A stretch of 28,216 bases of DNA, from the NCBI GenBank assembly GCA_964247135.1, contig CAXTTL010000033.1:1-28216 (forward strand). The letters run 5' to 3'. The notes below the pieces were generated by a model. That model was given only the letters and a program-made list of their open reading frames with translations. It was not told the DNA's origin and did not search any database. Of this stretch, positions 19,768-26,171 are shown in pieces. Both the position numbers and the translations under genes were made by a program. The stretch's first letter is position 1. Each line of letters begins with the position of its first letter. The stretch comes from an uncultured Deinococcales bacterium. Lineage in GTDB: Bacteria; Deinococcota; Deinococci; Deinococcales; JAAFIG01.

Positions 19768-21117
19768 TTAAGACACCTTCTCGAGCGTTTGATTTTCTCG
19801 AGCATCAAGGTTTTTCTGCTGTGGGTAACGAAAATTTTCTTTAAAAATTTGTGCCGATGGAACATCGTTAAAGATTTCCAAACCAATGCCGTTCAGTTCC
19901 ACCCAAGCATGACCCTCGAGCTTGCCATTGTTGCGCCGCACGCCACTGACAAAGACCACATCGTGTCCCTCGGCTTTTAAGGCATGATACGCCGCCGAAG
20001 AGCGCGGCACGCAGGCATCGGTTTTCGGACCAATCAAAAACAGCGTCCAATGAATGCCGCGCATGATCCGTTCCAAATGCTTAAAACCCTTGTTTGGTTG
20101 CGCCCGAGGAATGGGTTCGTTGGTGGCAACAATGTCATACAGGTCTGTTTTTTGCCGCAACAATTTCTTGACCCGCACCACATTTGAGTATTGGCTTGCC
20201 ACGTCAAACAGTGTTGGGATTGCCCGAATCAGACGGTCAAACCGTGCAAAACGCCACTCGAGTTGCCAAGACGTTGGAAACGAATTTCGCCAAGCTTTGA
20301 GCTTCTCTTGAGATAAGCGTTTGTAATCCAATTTTTGCCGCCAAGGATCACACAATGCCAAGAACGTCTCGAGCGCTTTGTTCAGACCAAAATGTTGCGC
20401 CCGTGACACCAGTGCCTCACGGCTTAAACCCCATTTTTTGGTGAGCGCCTTAAAATCAAGTGCATCGTGTGGTTTGATGCCTGGAGCTTCATCCCACATC
20501 CTCGAGAGCACAACGCCCAAAAGTGCGGCATCCTCAGCCGATGGCAGTGCCACCTGACAACCTTCCCAAGACACTTGACTCGAGGTTGACCACATCTCGT
20601 TTGTCAAATGTTGCGCATTTTTGGCGGAGGTAAACGTGTGCAGCGCAAAACGATGCAAGTCCAAACGCACGCTGTGGTCGGTGGTGAACAAATGGCTTTC
20701 CTCGTGAACGTTGGGCAGAACGGTGTCGCCACGATTCCAAGTCTCCACCCAACCAGGCAGTTCTCGCGCAATTTTTGTCGCTCGAGCCGCCTCAGATTCC
20801 TTGATGATAATATCCACATCGCCGTAAAAACGATTCGCCGGCAAGTCGTACATAAATTCCGCCATCATGAAACCCTTAAACAACATCGGCACGATACCCG
20901 CCGCGTTCCAAGCCTGCACCAACTCGAGCACATGGGTCTTCACTCGAGCATGACGCGCTGTGGATGCCAAGAATGCGTTGCGGAACTTGGGTTTTTCTGG
21001 GTGGTCGGCTGGCAAACTCGAGTAAAACAAGGGCAACAACCTAAAATCGGTCATCAAGCCAACTGGCACGTCTTTGGCTGGTGTGATTCCGAGCAGGAAT
21101 GACTCGAGGGCGTTCAT
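19768..21117 (-). CDS. Fusion of an uncharacterised nucleotidyltransferase (NTP_transf_5-like) domain and a lasso-peptide B2 (transglutaminase-like) protease domain
   Basis: N-terminal part PMLFKG...RFYGDVDIII...RLDLH; C-terminal part ACVPRS...G..VVFVSGVRR....LEGHAWVELNG. Confidence 0.82.
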   Translation of the reverse strand: MNALESFLLGITPAKDVPVGLMTDFRLLPLFYSSLPADHPEKPKFRNAFLASTARHARVKTHVLELVQAWNAAGIVPMLFKGFMMAEFMYDLPANRFYGDVDIIIKESEAARATKIARELPGWVETWNRGDTVLPNVHEESHLFTTDHSVRLDLHRFALHTFTSAKNAQHLTNEMWSTSSQVSWEGCQVALPSAEDAALLGVVLSRMWDEAPGIKPHDALDFKALTKKWGLSREALVSRAQHFGLNKALETFLALCDPWRQKLDYKRLSQEKLKAWRNSFPTSWQLEWRFARFDRLIRAIPTLFDVASQYSNVVRVKKLLRQKTDLYDIVATNEPIPRAQPNKGFKHLERIMRGIHWTLFLIGPKTDACVPRSSAAYHALKAEGHDVVFVSGVRRNNGKLEGHAWVELNGIGLEIFNDVPSAQIFKENFRYPQQKNLDARENQTLEKVS

Positions 21118-21141: not shown

Positions 21142-23826
21142 CTATTTCGCGTCGTACCAAGAATCCCCAACGCCCACCCCAACCCCAAGCGGCACCTCGA
21201 GCGTGAAAGCATTGTTCATGGTGTCCTCAACAATTTTACTGACTGCTTCAACGTGCTCGGTTGGACTCTCGAGCACCAGTTCGTCATGGACTTGCAAAAG
21301 CATTCTGGCGCCGAACGGTTCGAGTTGAGGCTCGAGGTAAATCATGGCGTACTTGATGATGCCCGCGCTCGTGCCTTGAATCGGCATGTTGATCGCGGCG
21401 CGTTCGGCGGCTTCGCGCACCATAAAAACCTTCGAGTTGATTTCTGGGATGTAACGCCGACGGTGCAATAAATCTTCAACATAACCATGTTCGTGACAAA
21501 AGGCTTTGGTGCGCTCGAGATAACCGTTGATGCCCGGGTAGGCTTCAAAGTATTTGGCAATAAAATCTTTGGCGGTCTCGTATGAAATGCCCTCGTCGCG
21601 GCTGAGGCGATGTGCCCCCATGCCGTACAAAATCCCGTAATTGACGGCTTTTGCGCCGCTTCGTTGGTCGCTGGTGACATCCTCGAGCGCAATGCCCAGA
21701 ATGCCGGCGGCGGTGCGGCGGTGAATGTCCTCGTTCAGCCTAAAACTCTCGAGCAGCGCGGGTTCCTTGGTGATGTGCGCCAGAATTCGCAGTTCAATCT
21801 GGCTGTAATCGGCGCTGATGAGTTTCATGCCCTCACTGGCAATAAAGCCCTTGCGCAGCTCACGTCCGACCTCGGTGCGTATCGGAATGTTTTGCAGGTT
21901 TGGATTCAGGCTCGAGATGCGCCCCGTCGCCGTGCCAACCTGGGAATAGGTGGTGTGCAAACGGTTGGTTTTAGGGTTGACCATCAAAGGCAGCGGGTCG
22001 AGGTACGTGCCCTTGAGTTTGGCAATCTCGCGGTACTCGAGGATTTTGGGAATGATCGCGTGTTCGTCCACCAGCCCCTCGAGCACGCTGGCGGCGGTGC
22101 TGCGTTTGCCCGTGCCTTTGGTTTTTTTGCCCGATGCCAGTTGCAGTTTGTCGTACAAGATTTTCTCGAGCTGATCCCGCGAGTTCAGGTTAAATTCTTC
22201 GCCCGACAATGCCCAGATGTCAAGCTCGAGTTCGTGAATGCGGGTTTGAAATTGATCTGAGAGTGCTTTGAATTGCGCGGCATCAATCCGAATACCGGTC
22301 GCCTCGATTCTGGCAAGCACTTTGCTGGTCGGAATCTCGAGGTTTTCGTACAGCTTGTTTTGCTCATCCGTGAACATCAGCGCGAGTTTTTGAATCAGTG
22401 TGGCGCTGGCGGCGGCTTGGCTTGCGGCGTCTTTTGCCCATTCATGCTCGAGGTAACGCTTGGAAATGATGCTGGCGCTGACGTTGGTGGTATCCAGCGC
22501 GTAAGCCATCAACAGCGGATCGTCCCCTGGCTCGAGGTTGACGCCGTTCATGATGGCGTGTACCGCCAAGGATTTCGCATCAAACGCGTGGACTTCACTC
22601 AAGCCTGCAAAAATCTCGAGGCTGGGATTTTCGGCTTCACGCACGCCGTTCTCAAAGTTGGGGTCGGCATAAGCCAGCGCCTTCAAATCCGCGCTCGAGG
22701 CGAAATCGCTCGAGAGGGTGAAGCCCCATACTGCATTCGCCTCGGGTTTTTGCCACTCGAGCCTGGTAAAAGTTTGCTCAACTTTGGCTGGCACCGCCTC
22801 GAGTTCAATCGCACCCAAATTCATGTCTTTGATCAAGCTGAAAAACTCGAGTTCGCTCAGCGCTTCACGCAGTCCGTCTTGCGGTGCAAAAACGTTGGCT
22901 TTGACAAAATCCGCCTCGAAATCCATGTCGGTCACGATCCTCGAGAGTTCTTTGCTCATTAAAACATTTTCGAAAGAATCCCGAATTTTTTGTGCATCTT
23001 TGGCAGGTTCTATCGTGTCCAAATTCGCCAAAATATAATCGAGCGAACCGTACTTTTCAAGGAGCTTCTGCGCCCCCTTTGGACCAATCCCCCGCGCCCC
23101 AGGAATGTTGTCACTCGAGTCGCCGGTCAAAGAACGGTAATCGACCCATTGATCGACGCGCACGCCGTACTTCTCGAGCACTTCGGCTGGTCCAACTTCG
23201 CGGTCATCGCTGGCGATCACCTTGACGTTCTCGGAAAGCAGTTGGTAGGCGTCACGGTCACTGGTTAAGATTCGCACCGCGATGCCCTCAGCTTCGGCTC
23301 GGGTTGCCAGCGTGCCGATCACATCGTCCGCCTCGTAACCTGGTTCTTCAAGGCGCATCAAACCCATCAGGTCAACAATTTTTTTGATCTTATGGACTTG
23401 CTCGTGCAAGTCGTCGGGCGTGTCGGCGCGACCTGCCTTGTAATTCTCGAACGCCTCATGCCTGAAGGTTTTCACGGGCGGGTCAAACACCACGATCACC
23501 GCGCCCTCTCGAGTTCCCTTTTTGACACCGTCTTTGACGTGACGCATAACGGTTTTGAGAAAGCCGTAAATCGCCTGAACGGGTTCGCCTTTGGAAGTCG
23601 TCAAACTGCCCGAGGAGCGTTGCAAGGCAAAGTACGAACGGTACGCCAGCGCATGACCGTCGATCAGGGTCACCCGTTTGGGTTTGGTGCTGCCGACCAC
23701 TTTTGGCGCAGGAATCTCGAGGTTCTCTGATGGATCAGGAATCCCGTGTTCTGCGAGGTAAATGTCATTTTCAGATTCGATTTGTTGCTCATTTTCGGGC
23801 GCATCGAACAGATTGGGTTGGCTCAT
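21142..23826 (-). CDS. polA: DNA polymerase I (Deinococcus/Thermus type)
   Basis: 5' nuclease LIDGHALAYRSYFA, GYEADDVIGTL, GDSSDNIPG; polymerase motifs DYSQIELRILAH, R...KAVNYGILYG, LLQVHDEL. Confidence 0.98.
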   Translation of the reverse strand: MSQPNLFDAPENEQQIESENDIYLAEHGIPDPSENLEIPAPKVVGSTKPKRVTLIDGHALAYRSYFALQRSSGSLTTSKGEPVQAIYGFLKTVMRHVKDGVKKGTREGAVIVVFDPPVKTFRHEAFENYKAGRADTPDDLHEQVHKIKKIVDLMGLMRLEEPGYEADDVIGTLATRAEAEGIAVRILTSDRDAYQLLSENVKVIASDDREVGPAEVLEKYGVRVDQWVDYRSLTGDSSDNIPGARGIGPKGAQKLLEKYGSLDYILANLDTIEPAKDAQKIRDSFENVLMSKELSRIVTDMDFEADFVKANVFAPQDGLREALSELEFFSLIKDMNLGAIELEAVPAKVEQTFTRLEWQKPEANAVWGFTLSSDFASSADLKALAYADPNFENGVREAENPSLEIFAGLSEVHAFDAKSLAVHAIMNGVNLEPGDDPLLMAYALDTTNVSASIISKRYLEHEWAKDAASQAAASATLIQKLALMFTDEQNKLYENLEIPTSKVLARIEATGIRIDAAQFKALSDQFQTRIHELELDIWALSGEEFNLNSRDQLEKILYDKLQLASGKKTKGTGKRSTAASVLEGLVDEHAIIPKILEYREIAKLKGTYLDPLPLMVNPKTNRLHTTYSQVGTATGRISSLNPNLQNIPIRTEVGRELRKGFIASEGMKLISADYSQIELRILAHITKEPALLESFRLNEDIHRRTAAGILGIALEDVTSDQRSGAKAVNYGILYGMGAHRLSRDEGISYETAKDFIAKYFEAYPGINGYLERTKAFCHEHGYVEDLLHRRRYIPEINSKVFMVREAAERAAINMPIQGTSAGIIKYAMIYLEPQLEPFGARMLLQVHDELVLESPTEHVEAVSKIVEDTMNNAFTLEVPLGVGVGVGDSWYDAK

Positions 23827-25359: not shown

Positions 25360-25554
25360 ATGGACTGGAAAATCAATCTCGCAGACCCAGATTTTGAACC
25401 CAGCGACGAGCAATTGCAAGAATTGATGCGTCGTGCATTTGCGCATCTTACTGAAGAAGACGAATTGCGATTGCGTCTGATGCGAGAACGCATTGCATTA
25501 GGGCGCGTTGAATTGTTAAAGCAACTTCGTCAAGAAACGGCACATTCAGCTTGA
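25360..25554 (+). CDS. Small helical protein, putative antitoxin partner of the zeta-like ATPase
   Basis: TATACT 6 nt before the ATG; its stop overlaps the TTG start of the next gene. Confidence 0.7.
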   Translation: MDWKINLADPDFEPSDEQLQELMRRAFAHLTEEDELRLRLMRERIALGRVELLKQLRQETAHSA

Positions 25555-26171
25555 AACCCGTTTTGCTCATGATCGCTGGACCAAACGGTTCAGGTAAAAC
25601 CACCGTTACTGTTTCACTGCGCCGCGATCAATGGAGCGAAGGTGTCGAGTACATCAACCCTGATGACATTGCCAAAGAAAAATTTGGCGACTGGAATTCT
25701 CGAGATGCGATTTTAAGTGCTGCAAACTGGGCAGAAGCCAGACGCGAAGAATTGCTCGAGCAACGCGCAGGAATTGCGTTTGAAACCGTATTTTCAGCAC
25801 CTGATAAAGTAAATTTCTTGCAACGTGCAAAACGGGCGGGTTACTTTTTGCGCGTTTTTTTTGTCAGTACCAACGACCCACGCATCAACGCTTCTCGAGT
25901 CATGAGGCGGGTTATGAATGGTGGACATACCGTGCCGCTCGAGAAAATCGTCAGTCGTTATGACAAGTCAATGGTCAATCTTGTCGCCGCGATTGAGATT
26001 GCAGATCGGGTTTACATTTACGACAATTCCATTGAAAACACCGAAGCAACTCTTTGCGCTCGAGTTTCTGACGGAATGATTCGCAAAATCTATGTTGATC
26101 TACCCGATTGGGTCACAGATGCCATTGAGGAGTTACCACAGCATCCAAAATTTGAAGATGCTCGAACTTAA
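25551..26171 (+). CDS. Zeta-toxin-like P-loop ATPase/kinase
   Basis: IAGPNGSGKTT, YINPDDIA, IAFETVFS, RVMNGGHTVPLEKIVSRY, IYDNS. Confidence 0.88.
   Translation: MKPVLLMIAGPNGSGKTTVTVSLRRDQWSEGVEYINPDDIAKEKFGDWNSRDAILSAANWAEARREELLEQRAGIAFETVFSAPDKVNFLQRAKRAGYFLRVFFVSTNDPRINASRVMRRVMNGGHTVPLEKIVSRYDKSMVNLVAAIEIADRVYIYDNSIENTEATLCARVSDGMIRKIYVDLPDWVTDAIEELPQHPKFEDART

Follow-up and report, generated by a model that had tools for sequence, protein, structure and literature searches.

A nucleotidyltransferase–B2 protease fusion of Deinococcota that probably serves a cyclase-free peptide pathway with precursors beside surface lipoprotein genes

Introduction

Linear polyphosphorylated peptides (LPP) have been described from Bacillota, where they are encoded by lppA-K-B-S-D-N clusters (Popov et al. 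2026, PMC13381572). In that account, the kinase LppK acts on Ser3 of the core, deletion of lppN led to no detectable change in LPP, and LPP-type peptides are said to have an unknown role (PMC13381572). The phosphorylated lasso peptide cluster Bsf of Bradymonas sediminis comprises bsfA, K, B1, B2, N, C and D, and its kinase BsfK phosphorylates Ser3 of BsfA (PMC10368454). For pseudomycoidin, an Asp pair of PsmN is reported to be needed for hexose capping of phosphoserine, direct transfer of the sugar by PsmN being left open in the source (PMC6993621). In the fosfazinomycin pathway, the nucleotidyltransferase FzmU works with kinases on a ribosomal peptide, with an N–P bond formed from an activated phospho-substrate (PMC13622209).

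The gene studied here encodes a fusion of a nucleotidyltransferase with a lasso B2-type protease and lies in a stretch of 28,216 nucleotides from an uncultured Deinococcales bacterium (the window). The system to which it appears to belong shares with LPP, as published, a discrete RRE, a kinase that is HPrK-like, an NTP transferase, a YxxP leader and the lack of a cyclase, and both share a single genome with a WxxP lasso cluster, here that on contig C32. The peptidase of LPP is SpI/SipW-like, whereas here it is a lasso B2 domain fused to the transferase; the LPP core cluster has an MsbA-like exporter, whereas none is conserved here; LPP genes lie in capsule loci, whereas here the precursors are numerous and scattered, with their genes coupled to lipoprotein genes; and the predicted cut here follows Thr(−2), unlike that in LPP (PMC13381572). 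B1, B2, kinase and nucleotidyltransferase are common to this system and Bsf, as is a Ser3 (or Thr3) putative kinase target, and the BsfA leader has the register seen in the peptides here, with Tyr(−17), Pro(−14), Leu(−12) and residue −2. Bsf as described differs in its cyclase, its ABC transporter and its separate B2 and N genes, and the peptides here carry no ring acid (PMC10368454). Pseudomycoidin and paeninodin biosynthesis (PsmK, PsmN) also pairs a kinase with a nucleotidyltransferase but is reported with a C-terminal Ser target and a lasso product (PMC6993621), while FzmU, as described, differs from the fusion in acting on a phosphonate triphosphate mimic and in having no B2 protease (PMC13622209). 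By analogy, the fusion system may work like LPP, and like Bsf minus the cyclase. The literature searched holds no description of the fusion or its cassette, and Deinococcota have 0 mentions in the main text of the LPP paper (PMC13381572); supplements, such as that of the same paper, could list such clusters.

Results

A conserved two-domain enzyme

The features of the fusion gene, in window coordinates, are as follows.

19768..21117, minus strand: nucleotidyltransferase–B2 protease fusion gene, a single 449-aa ORF with homologues and a model of pLDDT 93.3
20341..21042, minus strand: PF14907 NTP_transf_5 domain, residues 26–259, with a Pol-beta-type fold (Pfam 80.6 bits, cut-off 31.2)
20812..20823, minus strand: GDVD metal-binding motif (G99–D102), D100 and D102 invariant in 59/59 alignment rows
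20137..20340, minus strand: connector, residues 260–327, mainly helical in the secondary structure of the model
19885..20136, minus strand: PF13471/NF033537 lasso B2-type cysteine protease domain, residues 328–411, from profiles and alignment with the C32 B2
20011..20013, minus strand: Cys369, predicted catalytic nucleophile, invariant in 59/59
19909..19911, minus strand: His403 of HAWVE, predicted catalytic base; E407 is invariant and D/E418 occurs in 54/59

The first-pass annotation had described a single ORF with FKG, GDVD, LDLH, CVPRS and HAWVE motifs, all of which are present in the translation. The two Pfam families that it proposed were both recovered over their cut-offs, PF13471 with 46.6 bits on residues 328–411 (cut-off 26, Pfam scan), and the NCBIfam lasso B2 model NF033537 also matched (42.2 bits, cut-off 33). 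Residues K81, G82, D100, D102, C369, H403, W405 and E407 are invariant across 59 aligned homologues, and the B2 domain aligns with the lasso B2 of C32 at the Cys and at HAW. With its score over the cut-off, GDxD motif and Pol-beta-type fold, the N-terminal domain is a PF14907 transferase. The profile score and the catalytic Cys and His point to a B2-type leader peptidase for the C-terminal domain, for which RRE-dependent cleavage is predicted.

Structural comparison of the AlphaFold model (pLDDT 93.3) matched the N-terminal part to Pol-beta-type transferases (MenT1, Z 12.2; ANT(2'')-Ia, Z 11.2; LnuA, Z 9.7), as did Foldseek, and the C-terminal part to papain/transglutaminase folds only weakly (Z 5.3–5.8). 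No significant match was found for the fusion profile among the sequences of solved structures. A database search with the fusion returned 76 proteins at E≤0.001, with named homologues in Meiothermus and Deinococcus, and 75 of these carry both Pfam domains, which rules out the assembly artefact raised as a caveat earlier. The fusion is thereby confirmed as a real two-domain enzyme gene, conserved in many Deinococcus-group bacteria.

At L082:9354-10825 (G211), and also in G107, G131 and G176, the gene is in two pieces, by a natural split or a frameshift, corresponding to the transferase and protease parts. Two ESM Atlas clusters of proteins of ~550 aa, mostly from Acidobacteriota, carry both Pfam domains; the range of the architecture beyond Deinococcota is taken solely from this listing, which is without domain order.

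The polA neighbourhood

The fusion gene lies 24 nt from polA, as first noted, and 15 nt from a VOC gene, counting to the VOC ATG behind GGAGG; the longest VOC ORF would start 3 nt away. The first-pass annotation had noted the position behind polA, and a repurposed protein-modifying enzyme had been one of two functions proposed. On such a reading, the fusion would be a stand-alone enzyme for DNA metabolism in a polA operon, or a general protein nucleotidylase or transamidase; this spacing, the adjacency of polA and fusion in L042, and the MenT toxins among the fold neighbours speak for it. However, polA is present in only 2/46 loci, L042 and L040, with ~2.7 kb between the two genes in the latter (L040:7316-10000). 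Both loci come from close relatives, indicating that the position is lineage-specific and the link incidental, and the polA/VOC operon was rejected as functional context. The presence of the fusion also matches that of the kinase in 103/103 genomes of the family sample described below, and this strict co-occurrence with kinase and peptides makes a repurposed stand-alone enzyme highly improbable.

The window polA (21142–23826) carries a Taq-type exonuclease domain (Pfam), and an acidic N-terminal extension of ~50 residues, ahead of the 5'-3' exonuclease domain, is kept in close relatives, L040 and L042 matching over the full length. The window also encodes a Zeta-toxin-like P-loop kinase (25551–26171) and a toxin-antitoxin-like HTH and PIN gene pair (1610–2592). 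A profile scan of the 35 window ORFs agreed with the first-pass annotation that the PqqD, kinase, cyclase and precursor families are absent from them.

A four-partner cassette in relatives

A search of the phylum for the fusion gave matches in 80/251 genomes, many of those in family f5 being to the transferase part only. Forty of these matches and L040 were extracted with their surroundings, at most 20 kb each, and their genes assigned by profile mapping; L083 and L084 are transferase-only and were left out, giving 39 fusion loci, one of them (L082) with the gene split in two. Within these ≤20 kb regions, a PqqD-type RRE was found in 24 loci, an HPrK-like kinase in 23, a leader peptide in 23 and a lipoprotein with a common N-terminal domain in 23. 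All four partners were present in 20 loci and none of the four in 12, while a cyclase was found in 0/39. The description of the fusion as an orphan therefore holds for the lineage of the window but fails in relatives, where 20/39 loci hold kinase, RRE, peptide and lipoprotein. ORFs with ABC motifs occur in only 7/40 loci and at no conserved position, so the cassette has no conserved exporter, and export could still be provided in trans. An SpI-like gene was absent among the recurring neighbours.

A sample of 103 genomes of the Deinococcota family f2 contained the fusion in 50 (three as two pieces). The HPrK-like kinase was present in exactly the same 50 genomes, including cases in which the two genes are unlinked. 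Lasso-leader peptides were detected in 49/50 genomes with the fusion vs 1/53 others, and the lipoprotein N-domain in 47/50 vs 8/53. Among the 29 fusion genomes outside the building of the partner profiles, 28 had the peptide and 27 the lipoprotein. The f2 genomes are kin, so that these counts are not independent, no significance value is given, and inheritance of the cassette alone would yield co-occurrence; the unlinked cases lessen this effect but do not remove it. Cyclase-like genes, counted as any NF033535 match at E≤1e-5 and so taking in ordinary asparagine synthases, were found in 12/50 genomes with the fusion and 19/53 without, and no match over the NF033535 cut-off was obtained among the 103 genomes. 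In the four closest relatives, whose genomes are incomplete, peptides were found in 4/4, the kinase in 3/4 and cyclase-like genes in 1/4.

At C26:23300-29600 (L089), L046, L047 and L049, genes for three tail-collar-like proteins, for a binding protein and for a GNAT acetyltransferase come after a peptide-lipoprotein pair, and a similar set recurs in Thermaceae-type loci.

Precursor peptides with a lasso-type leader

Alignment of 30 peptides showed invariant Tyr and Pro, with Thr(−2) in 29, in the register Tyr(−17), Pro(−14), aliphatic(−12) and Thr(−2), and Ser/Thr at core positions 2–5, mostly 3. A further 52 peptides were picked among the better-scoring listed rows of 176 matches, and Thr near −2, sought in a 4-position window, was present in 52/52. 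LPP has its core Ser at position 3 (PMC13381572); of these 52 peptides, 47 had Ser/Thr at position 3 and all 52 at 2–5 (background, 246/586 tail windows), although the peptide profile contains core residues, which partly predetermines the Ser3 count, and with near-duplicate rows among the 52 the counts lean favourable. Asp/Glu at core positions 7–9 occurred in 3/30 of the first peptides, 0/52 of the further set and 0/6 of the source-genome peptides. The conserved part of the core is short and beta-strand-like, with tails of 5 to 32 residues. A lipoprotein gene was next to the peptide gene for 49/52 of the further peptides and for 23/24 of another set.

With no cyclase and no ring acid, the pathway is not a lasso pathway. 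A lasso assignment for the fusion falls both on the cognate peptides, which are without a ring Asp/Glu, and on distribution, the fusion not tracking cyclases.

Dispersed components in the source genome

The source genome (84% complete) contains one PF14907 match, the fusion itself, two to PF13471 and two to PqqD. The search for PqqD and HPr-kinase-like genes that had been proposed found an RRE gene and a kinase gene back to back on contig C14, directly behind the tmRNA gene. The C14 RRE matches PF05402 with 62 bits; profiles built without the C14 proteins scored the C14 kinase at 198 bits vs 45.5 for the C32 lasso kinase and the C14 RRE at 95 bits vs 35 for its C32 counterpart. Six intact leader peptides were identified on six other contigs (C147, C154, C141, C26, C126 and C16), which bears out the dispersed RiPP pathway proposed in the first-pass annotation. 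A strict Deinococcus peptide pattern gave no true precursor in this genome and the six were found with profiles only; reversed-sequence controls for the profile searches gave best E values of 0.095 and 1.9. The Ser/Thr position varies from 2 to 5 among these peptides, one has Ile at −2, and one passes NF033521 (20 vs 19 bits). A leader-like motif at C40:1-282 was not counted as a precursor, lying at a contig start and having an atypical tail.

Five of the six peptide genes abut a lipoprotein gene of one family, four by ATGA overlaps and one with a 1-nt gap, and the C16 peptide has no lipoprotein gene next to it. The genome has ~15 genes of this family, ~9–10 of them without an intact upstream peptide, and a degenerate peptide precedes the lipoprotein gene of C89. 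The lipoprotein cargo is varied, including an ExeM nuclease, repeat domains and Ig-like domains. The N-domain was modelled as a beta-sandwich (pLDDT 90.9), and with a pilin-like fold queried, the best fold-search Z of 7.3 was below a trustworthy level. A Pfam scan of 41 N-domains assigned no family, a lipoprotein profile had no significant match among sequences of solved structures, and the best Atlas feature for the N-domain scored 0.88 and is without a name. Complex prediction for the C147 peptide and its lipoprotein N-domain gave a score of 0.06 against a mark of 0.32, which bears on their pairing in neither direction.

The RRE-kinase pair lies behind the tmRNA gene in the source genome (L009:4577-6135, on C14) and in three close relatives (L169–L171), and the tmRNA tag peptides at these loci end in LLAA or LALAA. 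On C58:1-4769 (L096), a short YxxP-type peptide whose end is rich in Gly comes after a lipoprotein of the family, and an ORF like a peptidase-containing ABC exporter lies beyond it; this peptide is possibly of a different kind, or exported. Large SARP/STAND-type regulators with a common N-terminal domain are encoded at C154:5800-8877 and on 16 other contigs (at least 17 genes), and with 17 such similar genes in the genome, their adjacency to some cassettes is uninformative.

A lasso cluster elsewhere in the genome had been named as a possible alternative owner of the fusion, and one does exist. At C32:16000-21000 (L008:8024-12994), a paeninodin-like cluster encodes a sulfotransferase, B2, B1, a cyclase, a WxxP precursor whose core has Asp9, and a kinase, and the fusion, the sole PF14907 match in the genome, might be an accessory giving this cluster its missing nucleotidyltransferase. 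However, the cluster has its own B2 and its cyclase is interrupted by in-frame TAG and TAA stops, no cyclase-like match was found in 38/50 fusion genomes of f2 or in 3/4 of the closest, incomplete relatives, and the 39 fusion loci are devoid of cyclase genes. C32 was therefore rejected as the owner; distribution largely refutes this accessory reading, which we regard as very unlikely. The C32 sulfotransferase may also end at a premature stop, and cyclase matches free of internal stops occur in the relatives G216 and G251. The RRE position equivalent to the Tyr-binding Asp, an equivalence drawn by eye, is Asp vs Glu alongside YxxP vs WxxP systems, and the Y/W leader split between C14-type and C32 proteins recalls the LPP/paeninodin discrimination reported for LPP (PMC13381572).

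A complete cassette and its RNA in Deinococcus

Plasmid MP1 of Deinococcus radiodurans R1 is a named record with the full cassette: the fusion (DR_RS15790), a first peptide absent from the annotation, the ExeM/NucH nuclease (DR_RS15795), another such peptide, an Ig-like lipoprotein, an S8 peptidase, the kinase DR_RS15810 and the PqqD protein DR_RS15815. From its annotation and plasmid location, DR_RS15795 is likely to be the DR_B0067 studied previously (PMC3554781, PMC6300522), for which a DNase plate assay is described (PMC3554781).

As RNA runs available as contigs alone cannot show expression, one stranded raw-read run was used for locus L070. Sense depth was 320–440 over the peptide ORF, with reads beginning 16–19 nt upstream of its ATG, which indicates that the peptide gene is transcribed. 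Depth dipped to 36–63 between peptide and nuclease and then rose to 320–730 over the nuclease gene, inside which a second pile of read ends was present; with this dip and second pile, the data do not demonstrate one peptide-nuclease transcript. Reads over the fusion gene were near background in the same run.

Discussion

Taken together, the fusion is probably an enzyme that acts in trans to cut the leader and tailor the peptide in a cyclase-free pathway, the short precursor genes of which lie directly before surface lipoprotein genes. The original proposal is thus partly supported, in that a dispersed RiPP pathway is favoured by the data and a lasso pathway is not. By analogy with known systems, the PqqD-type RRE would bind the YxxP leader, the HPrK-like kinase would phosphorylate or polyphosphorylate a Ser/Thr of the core, in the way that BsfK and LppK modify Ser3, and the B2 domain would cut after residue −1. 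These three steps, although predicted by analogy, are fairly firm. The transferase domain may then cap the phosphoserine with a sugar, sugar-phosphate or nucleotide, comparable with the hexose capping associated with PsmN (PMC6993621), the best lead for this domain; N–P bond formation of the FzmU type is another option (PMC13622209). Capping is the weakest step of the scheme, as lppN deletion was without detectable change in LPP, and it is put forward tentatively. The product would be a linear phosphopeptide of 5–30 residues. In the source genome, relocation would have placed one enzyme copy behind polA and the pair of RRE and kinase genes behind tmRNA, together serving at least six scattered precursors.

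The same enzymology could serve another purpose, the surface protein itself. The lipoprotein might require the peptide as a partner, for its N-terminal beta-sandwich to be folded, exported, anchored or inhibited, or the enzymes might work on the nascent peptide and so control translation of the coupled lipoprotein gene. The lipoprotein gene next to nearly all peptides in both sets, the ATGA overlaps, the tracking of the fusion by the lipoprotein family, the short beta-strand-like part of the core with its tails of variable length and the scarcity of ABC-motif ORFs all accord with this purpose. It is opposed by the source genome, where most lipoprotein-family genes lack an intact upstream peptide, by the enzymes, in which no signal peptide is obvious although the lipoproteins are exported, by the three of the 52 peptides and the C16 peptide that have no lipoprotein next to them, and by the eight genomes that keep lipoproteins without the enzymes. 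We consider a pathway that exists to serve the lipoproteins possible but unlikely. The favoured view remains a cyclase-free phosphopeptide pathway in which each peptide is made with its lipoprotein and acts for it or signals about it. As the cassette lacks a conserved exporter, the preferred role, suggested only weakly, is that of an accessory or signal which stays with the cell and is produced along with each lipoprotein, not that of an antibiotic.

In the broadest form of this view, which we hold to be doubtful, Deinococcota would have converted machinery for lasso maturation into a genome-wide ring-less system for surface-protein biogenesis, in which a single kinase, RRE and transferase-protease mature as many as a dozen peptides dispersed over the genome. 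Each peptide would be made with its own lipoprotein, and that lipoprotein would need it for folding, export, anchoring or activation, the radiation-released secreted nuclease of D. radiodurans included.

The reaction of PF14907 transferases is open in LPP and lasso pathways alike, and the system offers them a concrete substrate, a set of partners and a host. It would represent a second route to linear phosphopeptides, based on a B2 protease. Roughly half of the Deinococcus-family genomes sampled contain it, misleadingly labelled as 'lasso peptide biosynthesis B2 protein'. The link to surface lipoproteins offers a phenotype, as the D. radiodurans R1 cassette flanks the ExeM/NucH nuclease. The system is common in a model genus and directly testable in Deinococcus radiodurans.
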